A stretch of DNA of 64,000 nucleotides from Candidatus Aerophobetes bacterium Ae_b3a (GTDB lineage Bacteria > Aerophobota > Aerophobia > Aerophobales > AE-B3A): positions 1,462 to 65,461 of the forward strand of contig NJBQ01000002.1 in the NCBI GenBank assembly GCA_005223095.1, read 5' to 3'. Below, one piece after another: positions 1,907-59,111 of this stretch. Position numbers and translations under genes: made by a program. The first letter of the stretch is position 1, and each line of letters opens with the position of its first letter. The notes below the pieces were generated by a model, which saw nothing but the letters and a program-made list of their open reading frames with translations, was not told where the DNA came from and searched no databases.

Positions 1907-2275
1907 TTTTCCCCTAAAATTAAATACAAAATATCGTAATAACTAAGTTCTTAATAATCCGGTCTTAACTATTGCGATTGAGTTTAGTAATATCCTGGAT
2001 AACATTACCAGAGGCTGTTTATTTCGCACAACTTAAAATAACCGAATTACTTCGTTTATGCTCCCAAATTAGTGTGTTTTGCGAAGTACTTCGTTTATGC
2101 AGAACCATAGGTGAAGTCTCAAATTGTAATTTTTTGTTATTGTCATCTTGAGGGAAATTACAGATACATCCTCTTTACTCATCCAGAAAAATAGCCAGCT
2201 GGTTTTTTGAGAGGTTTCGCAATTGTAACCACGGTTTTTATGGATGTTAGCGATGCGCATGTTTCGTAATGAGAG

Positions 2276-2699
2276 ATGCTTTTGTGCTTGGGCTGGTATT
2301 ACTGGCGGAGAGGCTGGGACTCCTTCTCCCCAGCTCAGGCCAAAAAACAGTCCACCGGACTGTTTTTCTTTGCGCCCTGCTCTTCACTCCTCCTCCGAAG
2401 CCGGCCGGTCTCACTGTCATTCGCTGCGCTCATTTTCCATCCCCCGGATGCGCTCGACTCGGCTTCGAGTCCCAGCGGATATTAAATGCTGGCGGACGCA
2501 GTTGCAACCAATTCGAACCATTGGCGAGATAACCGCACATATCAAGATACTGCCTACTCAGCAACCTCATTTGTATCAGAAATTATCCAAGAAAGCAACT
2601 CAACTGCGCCTGCTCGAAATGAGCTATGGGCAAATAGCCAGAAGTTTACGCATCGATAGAAAAACTGCCACAAAAGCTTGCGAGCATCAAGGGAGGTAA
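2276..2699 (+). pseudogene. Small C-terminal-HTH ORF of repeat unit copy 1, split and frameshifted by the 180-bp insertion
   Basis: Start MLLCLGWYYW (2276) matches the intact 78-aa ORF of copy 2 but reads into the insert and stops at 2485. The conserved C-terminal part WRTQLQPIRTIGEITAHIKILP..KATQLRLLEMSYGQIARSL..* resumes at 2490 in another frame. Confidence 0.55.
2302..2495. mobile_element. MITE-like 180-bp GC-rich insertion with 7-bp target duplication CTGGCGG
   Basis: Empty site is visible in copy 2 (GGTATTACTGGCGGACGCAG). Copy 1 has CTGGCGG at 2302-2308 and 2489-2495 flanking 180 bp. Subterminal inverted repeats GCTGGGACTC (2313-2322) / GAGTCCCAGC (2467-2476). Internal A-run/stem/T-run hairpin at 2343-2367. 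Confidence 0.6.
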
Positions 2700-2903
2700 A
2701 CCAATGTTCTGGTCCAACATTTCTCCGTTATTGCGAGGATTCAAAGCGACAAAGCAATATCACATACCCAAAGGAAAGATACATTTGAGCTCGGGTTCGC
2801 ATAAGCAAAATTTAGACGACGCAAGGCGTATCTATATACCCGCCGTTACGTGATCTGGCCTTTTCAGTCACTTCTACTCTTGATCAGTCTTGATAGTTAT
2901 TCT

Positions 2904-4031
2904 TCATTTTTCAAACAGATCCAAATATTCTTTATAGACAAATATCCTAGCGTATTTTTTCTCTTTTTCTCGACGATGCAGAAGACCGAGTTCAACGAAT
3001 CTTTTTGCCAATCTATTTGCCGCTTCACGTGAAAGGCCGGTGAATTCTCGAATCTTCCTTACGTTTACCATTGGCAGTTTATAGAGGTTTTTCAACAGCA
3101 CAATAGCATTCCTACTTGCCCTCCCTAGAGTTGATACTGTGTGCAGATCCTTTTCGCGCAAATCAATGATCCTATCCAAAGTTTCGATTGCTTCCTTGGC
3201 GATGCTTATGACACCCTTCAAGAAGAACTCAAGCCATTCTGTAATATTTCCTTTTCTATATTCATCGAGCATCGCAAAATATACTTCACGATGCTTTCTA
3301 AAATATTCTGAGAGGTACAGCACAGGTTTTTCCAGTACCTTCTCCTGGCAAAGGTATAAAGTAACAAGCAATCTTCCTACTCTGCCGTTTCCATCTATAA
3401 AAGGGTGGATTGTTTCAAACTGACTGTGAATTAGGGCCACTTTGATTAAAGCAGGAATGTCTTGGTTCGAATAAAAGAATTCCTCCAAATCCCCCATTGC
3501 TGACACCATATATTTCGGTGGTGGTGGCACAAAACGCGCATCAGCGGGACTTGTGCCCATAACCCAATTCTGACTTCTCTTGAACTCTCCCGGATATGGG
3601 TAGGTTGAACTCCTTGCCTTGCTAAGTAAGACCCGATGGACTTCCTTGATTACCCTCAAAGATAAGGGAAGACTTTCCAACTGTCGTAGGCCTTCATGTA
3701 TTGCATTTATATAATGCAAAATATCATCAACATCATCTGGCAATCCTGTTGTCTTCTCAACTTCTGCTAATAAAGCATCGGTAAGTCTTGCCTTAGTGCC
3801 TTCTATTTGGCTTGAATAGACGGACTCTTTCTTGATATACATAAATATAAAGAAATTAATATCAGGCAGAAGTTTGGCTATGCCATCCAATTTTCCTACT
3901 AATAAATTAGCCTCGGAAAGAAGTCTTATTGTCTGTGCGTTATTATAAGACAGTCCCTTTGGTGGGAATGGCTCGGGGATAAAGGCTTTGAAATTGCCTT
4001 TTTGCTGAATATACCTTCCTATCGTAATCAT
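2904..4031 (-). CDS. Fic family protein (AMPylase-type, class II auto-inhibited)
   Basis: 375 aa. Fic motif HPFIDGNGRVGRLL. N-terminal inhibitory motif SSQIEGT ([ST]xxxE[GN]). C-terminal winged-helix-like tail. GGAGG RBS. Confidence 0.9.
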   Translation of the reverse strand: MITIGRYIQQKGNFKAFIPEPFPPKGLSYNNAQTIRLLSEANLLVGKLDGIAKLLPDINFFIFMYIKKESVYSSQIEGTKARLTDALLAEVEKTTGLPDDVDDILHYINAIHEGLRQLESLPLSLRVIKEVHRVLLSKARSSTYPYPGEFKRSQNWVMGTSPADARFVPPPPKYMVSAMGDLEEFFYSNQDIPALIKVALIHSQFETIHPFIDGNGRVGRLLVTLYLCQEKVLEKPVLYLSEYFRKHREVYFAMLDEYRKGNITEWLEFFLKGVISIAKEAIETLDRIIDLREKDLHTVSTLGRASRNAIVLLKNLYKLPMVNVRKIREFTGLSREAANRLAKRFVELGLLHRREKEKKYARIFVYKEYLDLFEK

Positions 4032-4054
4032 GTCTGTCCTCCAACGATGTCAAC

Positions 4055-4083
4055 ATTATAATAATATAGTTGACATTTGTCAA
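4055..4083 (-). promoter_or_regulatory. Consensus sigma70-type promoter of the Fic gene embedded in GTTGACA heptamer repeats
   Basis: On the minus strand: TTGACA (rc of 4078-4083), 17 nt spacer, TATAAT (rc of 4055-4060), then GGAGG and ATG at 4031. Heptamers TGTCAAC/GTTGACA at 4048-4054, 4069-4075, 4078-4084 (TGTCAAG) and 4089-4095. Confidence 0.6.
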
Positions 4084-4245
4084 GTAGTTGTCAACTTTCC
4101 CCAACAGTAGTATCAGAAGCTTTTGGGTTGAGAGTGAGTAAGGAGGCGATTTCTTCGTTGGTTCCCTTAGCCGTTCTGATTCTGGTAAGTCGTGAATGGA
4201 GAATGACTTCAAGCTTGTTATTGAGGAGGTAGCCTTATGTTGTGG

Positions 4246-5061
4246 CTATTGATGCGTTTCTACAAACCAATCAATCAGTCCTCGAGAAATACTGACTTTG
4301 TCCGGTATGGCAGGGAGGTTATTAGCTGTAAACCAGCCTGCATCCATAACCTCAGTTTTATCGATAGTAATTTCGCCACTCCCATAATCGGCTGTAAAAG
4401 CAACCATAAGTGAATTGGGAAAAGGCCAGGGCTGGCTACCAAAGTAACATATGTTTCCCACCTCTATACCGACTTCCTCCTTAATCTCCCTCCTCACGCA
4501 TTCCTCAAGTGTTTCTCCTGGGTCGACAAAGCCGGCAATAACACTATATAATCCAGGCGGAAAGCGATGGGCGCGGGTAAGAAGTATCTGGTTACCCTTG
4601 AGAATAGCTACTATTATAGCTGGAGATATACGAGGAAAATTTATAAGGCCACATTGAGGGCAGACTTTGGCCCGTTCATTCGGCTTAGTTTGGGTGGGAG
4701 TTCCGCATCGCCCGCAATACTGGTGCGTCTGATCCCAATTCATAATTTGAATAGCACGACCAGATAACCAGAATAGATTTTCTTCCAGCAATCCGAATAG
4801 TGGCCGTAATCCCTGAAAAGCCATACCTTCAGGAGCCGAAGCATTAGCAGCTAATTCTGCCGAATAGCAGGGACGCCCATCTAGTGTGCCAAGATACTGC
4901 TTTCGTATTGGTTGTAGGTTTAGCGATTCCAAATGAGTGGCGCACGGGATAGCAACGGCTTTATCCCTCAATTCAATGAGGAGCTTATCATCACGAAACA
5001 CAAACCACCACGCAGGTTCAGTCTTTTTTGATGATGTCACCACCGCTGGTACAAAACTCAT
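4246..5061 (-). CDS. nudC: NADH pyrophosphatase / NAD-cap decapping Nudix hydrolase NudC
   Basis: 271 aa. Zinc ribbon CGRCGTPT..CPQCG. Nudix box GFVDPGETLEECVRREIKEEVGI. NudC-type N-terminal domain. Confidence 0.85.
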   Translation of the reverse strand: MSFVPAVVTSSKKTEPAWWFVFRDDKLLIELRDKAVAIPCATHLESLNLQPIRKQYLGTLDGRPCYSAELAANASAPEGMAFQGLRPLFGLLEENLFWLSGRAIQIMNWDQTHQYCGRCGTPTQTKPNERAKVCPQCGLINFPRISPAIIVAILKGNQILLTRAHRFPPGLYSVIAGFVDPGETLEECVRREIKEEVGIEVGNICYFGSQPWPFPNSLMVAFTADYGSGEITIDKTEVMDAGWFTANNLPAIPDKVSISRGLIDWFVETHQ

Positions 5062-5240
5062 AGGAAATCCTTTATATATTCAGTACTAAGGGAAAAATTT
5101 GCAGGCAAAAGGGGAAGGTTCCCTCCACGATAACCTTCATATTTATCACAAACCCAATGGTTAACTTTTTCACCAGATGCTACTTTCTTATATATAGTTT
5201 TTCTTTGAGCGCTCTTCATTGACATCTGTCTTTTCATCAT
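5058..5240 (-). CDS. Hypothetical 60-aa protein, stop overlaps nudC start (ATGA)
   Basis: ORF only; 4-nt overlap with nudC suggests coupling. No recognisable motif. Confidence 0.3.
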   Translation of the reverse strand: MMKRQMSMKSAQRKTIYKKVASGEKVNHWVCDKYEGYRGGNLPLLPANFSLSTEYIKDFL

Positions 5241-5354
5241 CTATTCCATCATTTCTCCTCTAAAAGATTAATCTACGCCTATTGGGCAGACCTTCCTGCA
5301 CTCTCGGTAACTCTCGATGAATGTTATCGCGGGAAGATCAGACACACATCCTCT

Positions 5355-5477
5355 TTACTCATCCAAGAAATAACCGGTTCTCTTTTTCAGAATTTCGGCA
5401 ATTTTAACCAAATTTTTTATGCATGGTAGCGATGCGCCTGTTTCGTAATGAGAAATGCTTTTGTGCTTGGGTTGGTA
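5355..5477 (-). pseudogene. 3' fragment of an XRE-family HTH gene (left arm of repeat unit; equivalents in copies 1 and 3)
   Basis: Minus frame reads *YQPKHKSISHYETGASLPCIKNLVKIAEILKKRTGYFLDE*. IS.YE.G...P....L.KIA is the helix3/helix4 signature of HTH_3 (XRE) domains. There is no N-terminal half and no start codon. Copy 1 reads ISHYETCASLTSIKTVVTIAK; copy 3 reads ISRYKTGASLPSIKTLAKSPK. Confidence 0.55.
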
Positions 5478-5691
5478 TTACTGGCGGACGCAGTTGCAAC
5501 CAATTCCAACCATTGGTGAAATAACCGCCCATATCAAGATACTTCCTGTCCACCAACCTTATTTATATCAAAAATTATTCAGGAAAGCAACTCAACTGCG
5601 TCTCTTGGGAATGAGCTATGGGCAAATAGCCAAGAGTTTACACATCAATAGCAAAACTGCCACAAAAGTTTGCAAATACGAAGGGAGATAA
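5455..5691 (+). CDS. Small protein with C-terminal helix-turn-helix (right arm of repeat unit)
   Basis: 78-aa ORF ending KATQLRLLGMSYGQIAKSLHINSKTATKVCKYEGR. Differences from copies 1 and 3 are enriched at third codon positions in this frame (RLL = cgt ctc ttg / cgc ctg ctc / cgt tta tta). Weak RBS; TAA TGA immediately upstream of the ATG. Confidence 0.45.
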   Translation: MLLCLGWYYWRTQLQPIPTIGEITAHIKILPVHQPYLYQKLFRKATQLRLLGMSYGQIAKSLHINSKTATKVCKYEGR

Positions 5692-6282
5692 GCTAATGTT
5701 CTGGCCTAACATTTTCCTGTCATTGAGCGAAGTCTCCTGTCTGTCATTGCCAGCCTGCTAAAGGCAGGCGTGGCAATCTCAGTCATCCAAAGGAGAGATA
5801 TATCTGGGTCCAAGTTCGTATTCTGCACGAAACTGAAAAAGCTATATTGGTTGATAATGGCATGAAAATATGGATCCCAAAATCACGCATATACGGGATA
5901 AGACTAAGGAACAATATCTTTGAGGTTCACGTTAAAGAAAGTACTGTTGCATAGTACTTAGGACTTTATTCAGGATCTTCTACTCCAATAGTTGGGGTTT
6001 TAACTTCTGATCGTTCTTACACGTCCATATTGTATTTGTGCGTTGTGCTAACGACCTTGGTTTGAGTTGCAAAAAACGCTTAAATAAACTTGTTCTTTCC
6101 CAAATAAAATGTCTACGTTTTTTTATTAACTCCAAACTATTGTTATAATTCAACTTTCCAACAATTTATTAATTTCCTATTATGCTATAATAGTATCTTT
6201 TTTCATGTTTATCTGTAAGGGTCAAAATAAAATAGATTAACCAAGAAAGAAATAGAGTTAAAATTATCCAAAAACATTGTAG

Positions 6283-6546
6283 CTAATGCCAAGGTAATTT
6301 TGGCAATCTTTTAAGCAAATTAACAAATCTCTCAAGATTGAATTCCTCTTGTTTCTTCATGATGTCGAATATTTCTGAGGATACAACACATCCAATAAGT
6401 TCCTTGGCTTCCTTTTTGGAATATCCTTCGGATATCAAACGACCTAATGTCTGTTTTGTCTCAGGTGGGTCATTTGTTCGAAGTTGATTATCGACAACTT
6501 GCAGGATAGCAACTTTCAAGCGGAGATTTGTTTCCATAGCAACCAA
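6283..6546 (-). CDS. DUF1841-like small protein
   Basis: 87 aa. VVDNQLRTNDPPETKQTLGRLISEGYSKKEAKELIGCVVSSEIFDIMKK resembles the DUF1841/YecA-associated helical domain as I remember it. Confidence 0.5.
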   Translation of the reverse strand: MVAMETNLRLKVAILQVVDNQLRTNDPPETKQTLGRLISEGYSKKEAKELIGCVVSSEIFDIMKKQEEFNLERFVNLLKRLPKLPWH

Positions 6547-6559
6547 TCTCCATCGTATA

Positions 6560-6694
6560 TTATACGGCCCACATACATCGACAAATACTGCATTTTCTGC
6601 AGTCTAAATCACACCCATATTTCGGATTATCAAGCTCATAAATTAGTAAAGCGGCGAGCACAAACCTGGCTTTGGTAGAAGGCCACTGGCTCAT
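6560..6694 (-). pseudogene. Truncated HicA-like toxin relic
   Basis: ATG overlaps the hicB stop (ATGA at 6691-6694). The first 17 aa, MSQWPSTKARFVLAALL, match the conserved N-terminus of the HicA/YcfA subgroup. The rest (IYELDNPKYGCDLDCRKCSICRCMWAV*) is unrelated and the ORF is only 44 aa. Confidence 0.55.
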
Positions 6695-6906
6695 GCTGAT
6701 ACCGCGAAGAGTTCGTGAAGCTCCGGGATTGCCTCTCCGTGTTCCAAGCGATCTGCAAGCACACGAAGGGCCAAGGCTTCAACTTTAGAAATAGCCTCCT
6801 CCCGGCTTCGACCATAGCCCATAACCCCGGGTAGTTCTCGGACCTCTGTGATCCATCGTCCATCATCTTCATGCTCAATTTCGATATTCATTGCTTGTAC
6901 GTCCAT
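6691..6906 (-). CDS. hicB: HicB-family antitoxin (UPF0150-type)
   Basis: 71 aa. IEIEHEDDGRWITEVRELPGVMGYGRSREEAISKVEALALRVLADRLEHGEAIP is the typical HicB N-terminal fold pattern. Confidence 0.75.
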   Translation of the reverse strand: MDVQAMNIEIEHEDDGRWITEVRELPGVMGYGRSREEAISKVEALALRVLADRLEHGEAIPELHELFAVSA

Positions 6907-6912
6907 CTTCAG

Positions 6913-6941
6913 ATTTTACACATGTAGATCCCAATTGTCAA
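6913..6941 (-). promoter_or_regulatory. Putative promoter of the hicB-like cassette
   Basis: Minus strand: TTGACA (rc 6936-6941), 17 nt, TAAAAT (rc 6913-6918), 6 nt before the ATG region at 6906. Confidence 0.45.
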
Positions 6942-6988
6942 ACTCTATCTTCTCTTGGCTATAATGATACTGCACACTTTTTTAAGAA
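6933..6988 (+). repeat. 57-bp promoter-region repeat, copy a (30-nt perfect core TCTCTTGGCTATAATGATACTGCACACTTT at 6951-6980)
   Basis: Same sequence at 31925-31982 (core 31944-31973). Carries TATAAT on the plus strand and abuts TTGACA on the minus strand. Confidence 0.8.
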
Positions 6989-7348
6989 GAATAATAGTAG
7001 AAATTATTACATACCAAAATCCTGACTAAGACAAGGGAATAATTGGTAGATGGACCGAAAGATTGTTACTAGGGGGACCCTTTAATAGGAATGAAAGAAG
7101 AGAAATTGGGAATACATCCTCTTTCAATCTTGAGACCCCTCTCTTCACCTTATTCATCCAAAAAATACCCAGCTGGTTTTTTGAGAACTTTGGCGATTTA
7201 GCTAAGGTTTTTATAGATGGTAATGATGCACCCGTTTTGTAACGAGAGATGCTTTTTGTTTAGTATTGATTTTTTTGGGCGAGTTGAGTTTGGGTTAAAT
7301 CAAGTGTTCGGATCAATAATATAGCGTTTAGCAGATAGTTTTTCTTTT

Positions 7349-7415
7349 CCCCCTCACCTTATCCCTCTCCCCACAGGAGGGTGCGATTCACGAAATACGA
7401 ACGACGAAATACGAG
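7349..7415. repeat. REP-like element (CCCCTCACC..CCCTCTCCCC-loop-GGAGGG..GATTCACGAAATACGAACGACGAAATACGAG)
   Basis: Same family as 51841-51875 and 59061-59111. Hairpin CCCTC/GAGGG. Tandem AAATACGA motifs. Confidence 0.7.
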
Positions 7416-7419
7416 TTTT

Positions 7420-7629
7420 TGGCGGACGCAGTTGCAACCAATTCGAACCGCCAGCAAAATAACCGCACATATCAAAATATTCCCTGTCCACCAACCCCAT
7501 TTATATCAAAAATTATCCCAAAAAGCAACCCAACTGCGTTTATTAGGAATGACCTATGGGTAAATATCCAGAAGTTTACACATCAATAGGAAAACTACCA
7601 TAAAAGCTTGCAAATATCAAGGGAGGTAA
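7420..7629 (+). pseudogene. Small HTH ORF of repeat unit copy 3 with in-frame stop
   Basis: WRTQLQPIRTASKITAHIKIFPVHQPHLYQKLSQKATQLRLLGMTYG*ISRSLHINRKTTIKACKYQGR*. In-frame TAA at 7561-7563; the N-terminus is lost to the insertion. Confidence 0.6.
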
Positions 7630-7678
7630 ACCAATGTTCTGGCTTAACATTTTCCTGTCATTGCGACCTCGAATCGAC

Positions 7679-7963
7679 CTAAACAAGTTCAACTTTCAAC
7701 CGTTTACCCAGTACATGCGCAACCTTATTCAATGTTTTTAAAGAACAACTTCTATTGTCAATATCTTCCAATCGAGATATGTTCTGTTGAGTAGTCTGTA
7801 ATCTTTTAGCTAATTCCTGTTGAGTTAAGTTTTTCTTTTGCCTGATTTTAGCTATCTGGATAGCCAAAGAGGCATAAACTTCTTCTTCATCGAACGCTTT
7901 GGGAAATTCCGGATCTCTTAAATCCTTTTTCAATCTGTCTTTAAATCGTCTTACGCCTTTCAT
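7679..7963 (-). CDS. XRE-family HTH antitoxin (HigA-like partner of RelE/Gp49-like toxin)
   Basis: 94 aa. HTH_3 signature NLTQQELAKRLQTTQQNISRLEDIDNRSCSLKTLNKVAHVLG. The start overlaps the upstream toxin stop (ATGA). Confidence 0.8.
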   Translation of the reverse strand: MKGVRRFKDRLKKDLRDPEFPKAFDEEEVYASLAIQIAKIRQKKNLTQQELAKRLQTTQQNISRLEDIDNRSCSLKTLNKVAHVLGKRLKVELV

Positions 7964-8316
7964 AATTCAATCTCACCCCTTTCATATCTCAGCAAGAAGT
8001 CTCGCATAATTCGCTCTGCTCTTTCAATCTCTCCTACAGGAATTATATTACTTTTCTTTGGAAAACCATGGGTAATAATCTTCTCACCAAAGAAAAAATA
8101 CAAAAATCGATAACGATTTGAACTAAAGCTAATTCTAAGCTCCCGAATTCTACCTCTTAGAACATCCGCAAATGGTCTTGCTAAGTTCGGCCCCTCCTCT
8201 TACAGTTTTTCCATCCATTTTTCAACTTTTGCCCTTATTCTCAATTCTAGCTCGTTTAAGAACTCCTCCGTAGGACATCTTTCTCGTTTATCTAAATAGA
8301 AGATTACTTCGTACAT
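7960..8316 (-). pseudogene. RelE/ParE-superfamily (phage Gp49/DUF891-like) toxin with a single in-frame TAA
   Basis: Not in ORF track. Minus-strand translation: MYEVIFYLDKRERCPTEEFLNELELRIRAKVEKWMEKL*EEGPNLARPFADVLRGRIRELRISFSSNRYRFLYFFFGEKIITHGFPKKSNIIPVGEIERAERIMRDFLLRYERGEIEL*. The stop is TAA (rc of 8200-8202), at the position where family members usually have a sense codon before EEGP. Confidence 0.75.
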
Positions 8317-8331
8317 CCTGACTTTTGTTTG

Positions 8332-8360
8332 ACTATACACTATTTTTAGTGTTTTGTCAA
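8332..8360 (-). promoter_or_regulatory. Promoter plus palindromic operator of the RelE-like/XRE cassette
   Basis: Minus strand: TTGACA (rc 8355-8360), 17 nt, TATAGT (rc 8332-8337). Perfect palindrome ACACTA-TTTT-TAGTGT at 8337-8352 fills the spacer. Confidence 0.55.
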
Positions 8361-8564
8361 CCCTTTCTCCTCTAAGTGTTAATTAAAATTTAGAAGTGCA
8401 CTATTTCTTAGTGATTTAAAGTTCAAAAGTGCACCTTTAAATTTTAGCTAACAAGGCTGCGAATTGACAACATTTCATAATAACATAAAATAAGAAAGAC
8501 AAAAGGATAAGCACCCTTTCTGAATTAGTGAATAATCCTAGCTCATTCCGGGAGAACCAAAATG

Positions 8565-8747
8565 TTAGCCACAGAACGGCGAGTAAGAAAATGGAAGGTT
8601 GGTTATTCCTGGCGTACTGCCCGAAAACTGAGTCTAGGTTTCTAGCAGTGCCTAAGAATCCTATTGTGGATACTGCCGTTCTGTGGATAACCTTTCAGGT
8701 TACCCACATCACTTGGATGGCTCTTCGAGCTCTCCACAGTCTCCACA
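8565..8747. promoter_or_regulatory. Cluster of six DnaA-box-like 9-mers
   Basis: TTAGCCACA 8565-8573 (+); GTATCCACA rc of 8665-8673; TTATCCACA rc of 8682-8690 (perfect consensus); TTACCCACA 8700-8708 (+); CTCTCCACA 8730-8738 (+); GTCTCCACA 8739-8747 (+). Two boxes are extended into a 16-bp inverted repeat TTA(G/T)CCACAGAACGGC (8565-8580 / 8675-8690). Confidence 0.5.
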
Positions 8748-50143: not shown

Positions 50144-51019
50144 CTAAGCACGAGGATGGTATTTCTTATATACTTTTTTCAAACGTTCCTGGCTGATGTG
50201 AGTATATATCTGAGTTGTATCAATATTGGCATGGCCCAAAAGCTCCTGAACAACACGCAGGTCAGCATCTCCAGAAAGAAGATGGGTGGCAAAAGAGTGG
50301 CGAAGGGTATGAGGAGATATATTCTTGCTTAAACCGGCTTTACTGGCATATTTTTTAATAATCTTCCAGCAGGCCTGCCGGGAGATTCTATTTCCATAAC
50401 GATTGCAGAAGAGAGGAACTTCTCTTTTCTTTTCTTCTCCCTTTTCCTCTAAGTACCTATTTATCCAGGAGCAGGCTTTTCCTCCTAAGGGGAGAAGATG
50501 TTCCTTGGATCCTTTTCCTGAAACCTTGAGCCATCCTTTTCTCAAATTGAGGTCGGTGGTATTCAGATTGACTAACTCTGATATGCGCAACCCTGCTCCA
50601 TACAAGACCTCTAAGATGGTCCGATCTCGGACTCCATATAAATTATCTAATGAAGGAGCATTTATAAGGCTGTCTACTTCTTTTTGGGAGAGATAGATAG
50701 GTATCTTTCTCCCTCGAGGCGGGGAGCTAATCTCTTCCAGGGGATTATGGTCAATTTTACCCTCGATATAAAGGAATCTATAAAAAGTCCTGATAACAGA
50801 TAGTTTTCGACTTATGCTGGAAGGAACATATTTTTTCTCCCTCAATCGAGCTACATATGCCCCTATGAGAGTAGAGTCTGCTTTAAGAATATCTGCTTTC
50901 AACCACTTGCTATATTGTAGTAAATCTCTTCTATAAGCGTCTATAGTATTAGCAGAAAGACCTCGTTCTACGCTTAAGTATTCAAGAAATGTTTCGGACA
51001 ATTTCTTCCGTCGCTGCAT
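50144..51019 (-). CDS. xerC: Tyrosine recombinase, XerC/XerD family
   Basis: 291 aa. YLSVERGLSANTIDAYRRDL, GKGSKE, LRHSFATHLL, VQELLGHANIDTTQIYTH and C-terminal HPRA. The C-terminal box looks more XerC-like, but C versus D is not certain. Confidence 0.85.
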   Translation of the reverse strand: MQRRKKLSETFLEYLSVERGLSANTIDAYRRDLLQYSKWLKADILKADSTLIGAYVARLREKKYVPSSISRKLSVIRTFYRFLYIEGKIDHNPLEEISSPPRGRKIPIYLSQKEVDSLINAPSLDNLYGVRDRTILEVLYGAGLRISELVNLNTTDLNLRKGWLKVSGKGSKEHLLPLGGKACSWINRYLEEKGEEKKREVPLFCNRYGNRISRQACWKIIKKYASKAGLSKNISPHTLRHSFATHLLSGDADLRVVQELLGHANIDTTQIYTHISQERLKKVYKKYHPRA

Positions 51020-51784: not shown

Positions 51785-51966
51785 CCTCGATGTCCGATCC
51801 TAGATACTAGTTTTGGCTTTCATCCCTTGTCCTTCTCTTTTCCCCTCACCCCTTCCCTCTCCCCTCGGGAGAGGATTAAGAAGAAGGGGCACGAGCATCC
51901 AGAGCGGGGCTTTAGAATTCAAACTCTTTTTCTCCCTTTTCAAGCATCGAGTATCTAGAATCGAGG
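51785..51966. repeat. 182-bp inverted-repeat-bounded intergenic element carrying a REP hairpin
   Basis: Left end CCTCGAT(GTCCGATC)CTAGATACT 51785-51808. Right end AGTATCTAG-A-ATCGAGG 51950-51966. Internal CCCCTCACCCCTTCCCTCTCC-CCTCG-GGAGAGG hairpin at 51842-51874. Confidence 0.55.
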
Positions 51967-59060: not shown

Positions 59061-59111
59061 CCCCTCACCTTAGTCCTCTCCCCCAAAGGGAGAGGAAATA
59101 CGAGCGACGAA
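59061..59111. repeat. REP-like element (CCCCTCACC..CCTCTCCC-CCAAA-GGGAGAGG-AAATACGAGCGACGAA)
   Basis: Perfect 8-bp stem at 59075-59082 / 59088-59095. Same family as 7349-7415 and 51841-51875. Confidence 0.75.

Follow-up and report, generated by a model that had tools for sequence, protein, structure and literature searches.

The window analysed here, a 64-kb stretch of the genome of Candidatus Aerophobetes bacterium Ae_b3a, opens with an islet of accessory genes (positions 1 to about 8700, minus-strand orientation) that contains three direct copies of a repeated unit. The cargo between the copies lies entirely on the minus strand, as an earlier sequence-only reading had described, and its cassettes carry SoFic, NudC, HicBA and HigBA. 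The copies share 76-85% identity, with 80-85% between the right arms (2489-2742, 5481-5734 and 7419-7672; 82.6-85.2% with blastn E values of 1e-69 to 1e-77 over 2489-2733, 5481-5725 and 7420-7666) and 76-83% between the left arms (2152-2309, 5331-5488 and 7150-7256; blastn). Blastn recovered the three copies about where that reading had placed them, and no fourth was found within the window by repeat search and blastn. The three repeats are decayed copies of one recurrent three-gene integron cassette of about 1.1 kb, common in arrays of uncultured sediment bacteria, and the islet itself is probably an integron-type cassette array.

The intact unit was seen once in locus L002 and twice in locus L007 (numbers with L denote related loci on other contigs), with a full XRE-family regulator, a helix-turn-helix (HTH) protein of 100 amino acid residues and a 67-aa gene. 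The XRE gene (71 aa; PF01381, 7e-14) lies on the minus strand and is separated by about 190 nt of divergent intergenic DNA from the HTH gene, which is transcribed away from it. The core of the HTH protein measures about 65-74 aa and the longest form 100 aa; its gene occurs in three 5' variants, all with an in-frame start ahead of the conserved core. The 67-aa gene lies 4-8 nt downstream of the HTH stop, with its ribosome-binding site GGGAGG within the end of the HTH gene; both genes are reversed relative to the array and overlap at GGGAGGTAAnCCAATG. About 75 nt of conserved tail with a terminator-like hairpin (window 5982-5998) follow the 67-aa gene. Read in array orientation, the unit proceeds from the cassette start TTGTGCGTAAGAACGAT through the tail, the 67-aa and HTH genes and a variable linker or promoter region to the XRE gene, which is co-oriented with the array, and ends in a conserved hairpin site ...TTTTAAG^TT (the caret marks the crossover point or the end of homology). 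In the protein collection all 144 clusters of HTH homologues are 60-137 aa long, and almost all of the 371 clusters of the 67-aa protein have exactly 67 residues, which makes it the most regular part of the unit.

The commonest linker between the XRE and HTH genes is the 190-nt element present in the first window copy (2298-2489). It recurs in at least 35 other loci, only at this position in the unit, and is therefore not the private insertion for which it had been taken from the sequence alone; the corresponding insert of the third copy is partly recurrent too. The first 34 nt of the element (2298-2331, CTGGCGGAGAGGCTGGGACTCCTTCTCCCCAGCT) are 90-97% identical across more than 20 loci and are conserved more than the flanking coding DNA. 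On the minus strand this start motif resembles the 3' end of a tRNA (a hairpin, then CCTCTCC-G-CCA), and CTGGCGG stands at both linker ends; ARAGORN found no tRNA in the linker. A structured RNA on the minus strand of the linker was considered and rejected, the 206-nt fold having a non-significant z of -0.83.

All three window copies, which lie on the plus strand, are damaged versions of this arrangement. Copy 1 (2026-2813) consists of a recombination site read on the minus strand (2026-2178, ending ...TTTTAA^GTTGTGC), a 3' fragment of the XRE gene (about 2179-2297, minus strand), the linker (2298-2489), the HTH core open reading frame (ORF; 2490-2699) and a remnant of the 67-aa gene with a hairpin resembling repetitive extragenic palindromes (REP-like; 2704-2813). 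Its XRE truncation is the same as in copy 2, the XRE 5' half and the promoter region being gone from both, and most of its 67-aa gene is deleted. Copy 2 (about 5308 to about 6030) retains a stub of a cassette recombination site (attC; 5308-5364), an XRE 3' fragment (5365-5480, minus strand), an HTH ORF (5455-5691, conserved core from 5481) and a 67-aa gene (5696-5954) that is disrupted by a REP-like hairpin at about 5707-5783. A deletion joined at a TTGG microhomology has taken out the 5' half of XRE and the intergenic region, together with the 5' end of the HTH gene in its long form, and a small (6-nt) deletion at about 6022 has destroyed the right R box. In copy 3 (7041-7668) a 3' flank (7041-7152) is followed by an XRE pseudogene with a stop and a frameshift (7153-7304, minus strand), a REP-like and tandemly repeated linker (7305-7418), an HTH pseudogene (7419-7629) interrupted by a TAA at 7561-7563; of the 67-aa gene only 11 codons at its start remain (7634-7668). 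A further stretch of XRE is still present in decayed form, and both arms are pseudogenes. The 67-aa gene is thus lost or disrupted in three of three window copies, and, as far as a look-up showed, none of the three HTH ORFs is annotated in the record of this metagenome-assembled genome (MAG).

Much of what had been read from the letters alone stands. The left arm is a minus-strand XRE C-terminal fragment with no in-frame 5' half in any window copy, and the right arm is a plus-strand ORF ending in an HTH. The copies proposed there are real, with an extent of about 0.5 kb that proved too small, copy 2 spanning about 5308-6030 once the 67-aa gene and tail are included. Likewise, the GGGAGG-N7-ATG motif, the AATGTT-N7-AACATT hairpin and the palindromic tail are all present. 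The hairpin, however, is not part of the unit's architecture: it is created where a REP-like insertion disrupts the 67-aa gene, and it is absent from intact copies. As a by-product of that insertion, the hairpin was also rejected as a Xer/dif-type module or an integron attC. The REP-like hairpin (…CTGTCATTGCGAG…GGCAATCTCA…) has entered the 67-aa gene at one shared position close to its 5' end in several copies independent of each other (5707-5783, 2725-2770 and 7645-7668 in the window, and in L001 and L005), and the junction of copy 3 with the HigBA genes falls inside such an element. The insert of copy 3 (7340-7380) contains a CCCCTCACCTTATCCCTCTCCCCACAGGAGGG-type motif with weak matches at 51833-51871 and 59061-59111, which looks like a second, genome-wide short repeat family.

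Mean pairwise dN/dS (Nei-Gojobori, over thousands of pairs) is 0.17 for the HTH gene (101 copies), 0.13 for the 67-aa gene (93 copies) and 0.14 for XRE (36 copies), and variability at third codon positions is about two- to threefold that at the first and second. Judged from these codon patterns, all three unit genes are under purifying selection; the enrichment of differences at synonymous sites and the protein-level constraint claimed earlier for both arms hold, with dN/dS well below 1. Between copies 1 and 2 the values are 0.28 for HTH and 0.41 for the XRE fragment, and the constraint in the window copies is partly historical. Non-functional repeated DNA, either REP-like or a local segmental duplication with artefactual coding constraint, would fit the REP-like hairpins within the copies (5707-5783, 2725-2770, 7305-7380) and the disruption of all three. 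The chance of it is close to negligible given dN/dS values of 0.13-0.18, the uniform 67-aa length in hundreds of clusters, a confident HTH structure model and the fact that copies within an array are no closer to each other than copies from different metagenomes.

The intact units also bear on the model put forward earlier, in which elements insert one after another, by site-specific recombination, at the 3' end of a single XRE gene, each event leaving a duplicate of the 3' fragment behind, and the small HTH ORF serves as excisionase. Direct XRE 3' fragments do partition accessory cargo here, and the window holds no full-length XRE copy. Full-length XRE genes are found inside intact units (L002, and twice in L007) and not at an array end, however, and the truncation points of the fragments differ (q13 to q40), as produced by internal deletion; the repeat also spans two more genes on the other strand and a terminator. 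Beside none of the 102 loci with the unit is there a phage-type integrase, the only recombinases found being IntI and XerD, and the HTH protein lacks a Xis/AlpA signature. Serial integration is consequently very improbable, and the "3' gene fragments" of the window come from internal deletion and pseudogenisation. The role of excisionase proposed for the HTH ORF falls with the absence of any Xis/AlpA family match; the only matches were below threshold, to generic sigma70-r4/HTH_23-type models. A serine-recombinase C-terminal fragment and a transposase N-terminus were rejected as well, since none of the 144 HTH clusters belongs to a larger recombinase or transposase.

The assignment as an integron cassette follows from the edges, because homology between copies ends at the integron core boxes GTTRRRY and RYYYAAC. 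At the left edge it stops exactly at ...CGGTTATTTTAA (...TTTTAA^GTTRRRY), and in six of seven loci with different neighbours GTTRRRY follows, the continuations being GTTGTGC, GTTAGCC, GTTATGC, GTTGGAC, GTTATCT or GTTAGCT. At the right edge 34 of 44 copies lose homology after ...GATCGTTCTTACGCACAAC (...ACGCACAAC^, i.e. ...CAAC); the sequences beyond fall into at least eight unrelated classes, of which several can be recognised as attC arms. On the array strand the first bases of the cassette are therefore TTGTGCG..., and its last base is the G of a GTTRRRY box, which is the integron crossover signature. The orientation of the unit relative to the array is invariant in the 102 loci. Cassette-level mosaicism is visible as well: the segment 2489-4110 (HTH to Fic) is 92% identical to L002 and L003 and diverges at a CCCCAAC box. 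Besides the unit's own site, attC-like sites occur in the window at 8705-8551, 4245-4099 and 1376-1284. The unit's own site consists of a conserved 17-bp hairpin followed by TTTAA-G^TT (RNAalifold on seven full-length copies, with minimal covariation support of one compensatory pair).

These boundaries also speak to the idea that the unit spreads autonomously, as a mobile or selfish element unrelated to integrons. It would resemble a miniature inverted-repeat transposable element or insertion sequence (IS), or be a self-spreading toxin-antitoxin (TA) module, and would have invaded the arrays, its AAC/GTT edge boxes being incidental. Such an element would account for the high copy number with a median spacing of 2.9 kb, the short inverted motifs near the ends (ACATCCTC / AGGATGT), the direct repeat CTGGCGG on either side of the 190-nt linker and the atypical attC of the unit. 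Nonetheless it is improbable: there is no transposase, no consistent terminal inverted repeat at the homology edges and no target-site duplication, the orientation is fixed at all loci, the edges match G^TT crossover boxes common to unrelated neighbouring cassettes, and no copy lies in the window's 55 kb of ordinary genome.

Related loci supply the integron context. They look alike: genes follow one another on a single strand, opposite to that of the HTH and 67-aa genes, with spacers of 100-180 nt between them. About 15 attC-like spacers of this length occur in L029 (e.g. GCCTAAC...GTTAGAC), among them TTCTAAC-GTTAA-GGATCAGCGG...CGCTGAATCC-GCTT-GTTAGAA with a single extra base in one arm. In L040 a tblastn search with IntI1, used only as a probe, found a full-length homologue (43% identity over 310 aa). 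This protein of 413 aa scores 419.5 bits on the TIGR02249 "integron integrase" model (cut-off 265), possesses the IntI-specific segment including ...HHIHES, and has nearest relatives annotated as integron integrases. The integrase gene is divergent from six co-oriented minus-strand cassettes, the sixth of which is the unit. An attI-like G^TTAGAC adjoins the first cassette, and the spacers between the cassettes are textbook attC sites on the minus strand, one being GCATAAC-CAG-GCAAATGCAGCCGAC...GTCGGCTGCATTTGC-AAC-GTTATAA (15 bp stem, folding free energy dG -24 kcal/mol) and others GTCTAAC...GTTAGGT and ATATAAC...GTTGTAC. The geometry is the same in L086: co-oriented ORFs, the unit among them, extend over at least 13 kb, and past them, where the contig ends, the opposite strand encodes an IntI N-terminus. 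L111 contains another complete integron, with an IntI 69% identical; the unit is absent from the 2.7 kb of array at hand there. In the searchable literature no description of Aerophobota integrons was found.

Fragments of IntI were also observed within cassette arrays, in either orientation (L026 7203-7358, L046 1225-1407, L056 515-1027 and L023 5223-5354). Among them are C-terminal pieces, with identities to IntI1 of up to 72%, and a single N-terminal one; the single-cell genome of Candidatus Aerophobus profundus contains one such fragment. In L056 an attC lies directly 3' of intI.

IntegronFinder designates clusters of attC sites without an integron integrase as CALINs (Cury et al. 2016, PMC4889954; Neron et al. 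2022, PMC9024848). The islet is labelled accordingly, because the window contains no integron integrase, and we estimate a probability of about 0.72 that it is an integron-type cassette array of this kind; the figure applies to the architecture claim only, that is, an integron cassette array with a recurrent cassette. Several observations weigh against the assignment. An integron integrase is missing from all 64 kb; the attC sites of the window were called by eye and folding. Ad hoc attC scans (stem scoring and constrained minimum free energy) gave three matches in the 9-kb array, seven in the other 55 kb and zero to six in shuffles; dominated by length bias and noise, they were not used as evidence. 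For the terminal GTT box of the unit's own site no R'' partner was identified, and the junctions at the right edge of copy 2, between copy 3 and HigBA and at 749-591 have no recognisable attC or have broken boxes. Moreover, the loci come mostly from a few related sediment metagenomes, so that their counts are not independent.

The statement that the window has no integrase or transposase is right for transposases and incomplete for recombinases: a tyrosine recombinase is encoded at 50144-51019 (minus strand, 291 aa), and it is XerD (TIGR02225 365 bits; TIGR02249 131 bits, under the cut-off of 265). An "undescribed cassette-array architecture", the second option left by the sequence-only reading, was correct in its cassette array, given the bona fide IntI with attI and attC in L040 and L086, and not in its novelty, the array being of integron type. 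The outcomes named there as refuting the reading were not encountered, as no IS or transposase was found, dN/dS is far below 1 and the unit occurs in 102 loci. The architecture is of a known kind, and what is new is a compact, abundant and unannotated cassette family, possibly a new TA pair.

The unit occurs in two to four copies in 30 of the 102 loci, with a median spacing of 2.9 kb. In the 189-nt HTH core the median identity is 0.80 within a locus (maximum 0.85) and 0.80 between loci, and the window copies have their nearest relatives in other metagenomes (0.86-0.89, against 0.81-0.84 to each other). Because identity within arrays is no higher than between loci, the copies are independently diverged members of the family and not local duplicates; the arrays sample an old and diverse cassette pool. 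Across the 30 multi-copy loci no pair from the same array exceeds 85% identity in the HTH core, a ceiling that may reflect selection against homologous recombination or cross-talk among the copies. MAGs with very different taxonomic labels, two of them archaeal, contain units that are nearly identical (75-100% at protein level): Aenigmatarchaeota (L007, L010, L015 and L026), Borrarchaeota (L013), Cloacimonadota (L008), "Clostridia" (L009, L011, L012 and L014) and Desulfobacterales (L018 and L020). These mixed labels represent either mis-binned Aerophobota contigs or cassette flow across taxa; integrons have been reported from archaea (PMC9668308). More distant HTH/67-aa homologues (about 50-55% identity) form a stand-alone two-gene locus in Omnitrophota MAGs (L019 5257-5699 and L021 9983-10443). 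These loci have their own terminators and ordinary genes of mixed orientation as neighbours, and they also begin at CTGGCGG.

In the 100-aa form of the HTH protein the last 40 residues are confidently modelled as a three-helix HTH, residues 60-97 scoring above 90 in the predicted local distance difference test (pLDDT). Decay of the two genes of the HTH/67-aa pair is asymmetric. Where a copy has room on both sides, both genes are intact in 79 cases; a further 28 have an open HTH frame and a lost 67-aa gene, six have a broken HTH frame and an intact 67-aa gene, and 13 have both broken; of the six reverse cases two are read-through fusions and three lie just under the length threshold, so that one to four are genuine. 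Copies that did not serve as search anchors gave 19 cases of a lost 67-aa gene with an open HTH frame and none of the reverse. From this asymmetry, the overlap of the two genes with a ribosome-binding site for the second, the in-frame starts that are kept, the stand-alone pairs of Omnitrophota, the existence of TA cassettes elsewhere and the TA neighbours in the window, we infer that the pair may be a type II TA-like addiction module, a tentative reading to which we assign somewhat less than even odds. The HTH protein would then act as antitoxin and autoregulator and the 67-aa protein, a predicted small beta-barrel, as toxin, with XRE as an optional third regulator. In that role the cassette would stabilise the array by making the loss of cassettes costly. 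As part of the array architecture, the copies are probably captured and shuffled by IntI-type attC recombination like other cassettes, and arrays of the Aerophobetes lineage carry one unit about every 3 kb.

Several properties of the pair count against a TA function. Searches of Pfam, NCBIfam, PADLOC and the PDB sequences gave no match for the 67-aa protein. Its AlphaFold2 model (pLDDT 63) suggests a five-stranded small barrel, for which Foldseek against the PDB returned nothing below E 0.29 (insignificant likeness to SH3, OB, IF1 and Sac7d); a comparison with IF1 by hhalign returned nothing. One PHROG of unknown function matched at 1e-4, and a profile search of 1.84 billion representatives retrieved only 98 relatives, a few with borderline S1_2 matches. 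Distant relatives carry the motif KAILV...W(I/L)PKS in tandem and have borderline S1-domain scores. The borderline S1 scores suggest a nucleic-acid binder rather than an enzyme. In addition, the decay asymmetry could also reflect the position of the 67-aa gene at the cassette edge or translational coupling, and none of the window copies yielded a convincing promoter ahead of the HTH core.

The same cassette could instead be regulatory, a promoter cassette in which XRE and HTH form a divergent switch, the XRE-side promoter reads into downstream, otherwise silent cassettes and the 67-aa protein is an accessory nucleic-acid binder. XRE is indeed co-oriented with the array and sits directly upstream of cargo (a methyltransferase-HNH gene in L007, Fic or NudC in the window), it matches regulators of the controller-protein, RstR, CapH and RmrA types, and the 190-nt divergent region of intact units holds an ATCAT-TTT-ATGAT palindrome; the 67-aa protein, moreover, is more like small SH3/OB/S1-like binders than any toxin. 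We consider this role unlikely, though it has the best claim among the alternatives, because XRE is the least retained gene (intact in about 8 of about 130 copies) and the HTH/67-aa pair is under purifying selection without it. The neighbouring Fic, HicBA and HigBA cassettes have strong promoter-like sites of their own, the pair also exists outside arrays in Omnitrophota, and the near-total dependence of the 67-aa gene on the HTH frame would be left unexplained.

The remaining features of the islet are described in array order, all on the minus strand. At the upstream (attI-proximal) end lies a canonical attC-like site of 155 nt (8551-8705; dG -30.8 kcal/mol with DNA parameters). Read from 8705 to 8551, it consists of R'' GGGTAAC, 7 nt, a 17-bp L''/L' stem with one mismatch, 6 nt and R' GTTCTCC. 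A gene-less interval of 186 nt separates it from the start of HigBA and contains, at 8377-8453, a palindrome with 29-nt arms (GTTAATTAAAATTTAGAAGTGCAC...GTGCACCTTTAAATTTTAGCTAAC). Its boxes follow the order GTT...AAC, which a standard attC does not have; a gene-less cassette and an operator are possible identities. The HigB/HigA-type TA block with its own promoter (7665-8369) comprises HigA (XRE, HTH_37; 7679-7963, PF13744 1.7e-10) and a pseudogene of a Gp49/HigB-like toxin (7960-8340, PF05973 4.5e-17) with an in-frame TAA at 8200-8202. The block is 89-91% identical in L008, L030 and L005 and is joined straight to copy 3 at 7665-7668, with no attC between.

Between copies 3 and 2, the HicBA cassette with its promoter-like site (6283-6941) encodes a HicB antitoxin (6691-6906, sub-threshold HicB_lk_antitox), a truncated HicA (6560-6694) and an 87-aa protein without a family match (6283-6546). 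Both canonical toxins of the islet are inactivated (HigB-like by a stop, HicA by truncation) while the antitoxins are intact, the same decay pattern as in the repeated unit. Between copies 2 and 1 lies the NudC-type NUDIX cassette (4099-5318), with a 60-aa ORF (5058-5240), NudC (4246-5061; NUDIX 3.3e-21, Zn_ribbon_NUD; recurring in L027 with 89.7% gene identity) and an attC-like site (4245-4099; R'' CCACAAC ... R' GTTGGGG, 6/7 complementary). Its 80-nt leader (5238-5318) begins at a G^TTACCG box and ends in the ribosome-binding site and start of the 60-aa ORF. The leader recurs at 89-96% identity ahead of other small ORFs in L002 (twice), L003, L014 and L022 and may be a conserved cassette leader or a small-ORF module. 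The next cassette is the SoFic defence cassette (2814-4104; Fic/DOC with a C-terminal MarR-like HTH, PADLOC SoFic 4.5e-109), with an attC-like region at 2902-2814 (R'' GAATAAC ... GTCGTCT).

Beyond copy 1, a single-gene cassette (1284-2031) encodes a membrane protein of 153 aa (1445-1906). It starts TTGTGCG (2031) and ends in an attC-like site (1376-1284) of R'' GCACAAC, AA, CGGATATGAG ... CTCATATCCG, CAACC and R' GTTATAT; its start and R'' are 20-nt inverted repeats, R'' GCACAAC being complementary to the TTGTGCG start. The next cassette (591-1289), for a 149-aa SRPBCC/polyketide-cyclase-like protein (750-1199), has a hairpin after the gene ending ...CCG^TTGTAT, and no R'' box was found in it. 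Sigma-70-like promoters on the minus strand precede SoFic (4083-4055, 12/12 matches), HigBA (TTGACA-17-TATAGT at 8360-8332, 11/12) and HicBA (TTGACA-17-TAAAAT at 6941-6913, 11/12). Because these near-perfect sites lie inside the cassettes, the Fic, HigBA and HicBA cassettes appear to be self-expressed and not Pc-dependent. ARAGORN predicted no tRNA or tmRNA gene, and Rfam gave no match at gathering thresholds and only chance-level ones at E up to 5.

With the integron assignment, a speculative new cassette architecture is replaced by a concrete one, an integron cassette array (CALIN) in Aerophobota, and a compact, abundant, unannotated cassette family is defined, with 371 clusters for its 67-aa protein and 144 for its HTH protein. 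In arrays of an uncultured phylum the family recurs with unusually high density, and its decay is TA-like. More tentative still than the TA function itself is the wider proposal that the HTH/67-aa pair, with XRE as an option, might form an undescribed family, TA or addiction-like, that has specialised in the integron arrays of sediment phyla so far uncultured. Present about every 3 kb, it would be the principal stabiliser of these arrays, its paralogues held at or below about 85% identity and so avoiding recombination and cross-neutralisation. A true TA would constitute a new family with a very small beta-barrel toxin and a natural case of an array stabilised by massive reiteration of one TA family, complementing the "cassette-loss killing" model of Vibrio. 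Even if the pair is not a TA, the unit offers a useful marker with which to find integron arrays in metagenomes from sediments.

Three-component TA systems such as paaR-paaA-parE likewise combine an XRE-family regulator with a two-gene toxin-antitoxin core. In the present unit, in contrast, XRE is divergently transcribed and dispensable in most copies, and we know of no sequence relationship of the unit to ParE or PaaA. As a whole, the arrays resemble sedentary chromosomal integrons and CALINs in their co-oriented, mostly single-gene cassettes, in imperfect-palindrome sites with RYYYAAC/GTTRRRY boxes, in cassette-level mosaicism between genomes with breakpoints at G^TT, and in cargo rich in TA and defence genes. 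Related arrays also have a divergent IntI bearing the IntI-specific insert, and intI pseudogene fragments lie near some loci. They differ from the known examples in their host, the uncultured candidate phylum Aerophobota, in the degeneration of several window junctions and in a recurrent cassette whose site is without a recognisable R''.

The closest functional parallel would be the superintegrons of Vibrio, in which promoter-bearing TA cassettes are established to make cassette loss lethal and thereby stabilise chromosomal integrons (Richard et al. 2024, PMC13108822). Similar to those cassettes, the HTH/67-aa pair combines two small, overlapping genes with expression signals of its own inside a cassette; it is a module present in multiple copies among silent cargo, in which orphan "antitoxin" copies are common and which has canonical HicBA and HigBA alongside. 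Unlike the Vibrio cassettes, the unit possesses a third gene, XRE, and its putative toxin is without a known toxin fold or family. Whereas the Vibrio arrays hold roughly 19 TA cassettes of many known families, a single uncharacterised family recurs here about every 3 kb, with paralogues about 80% identical.

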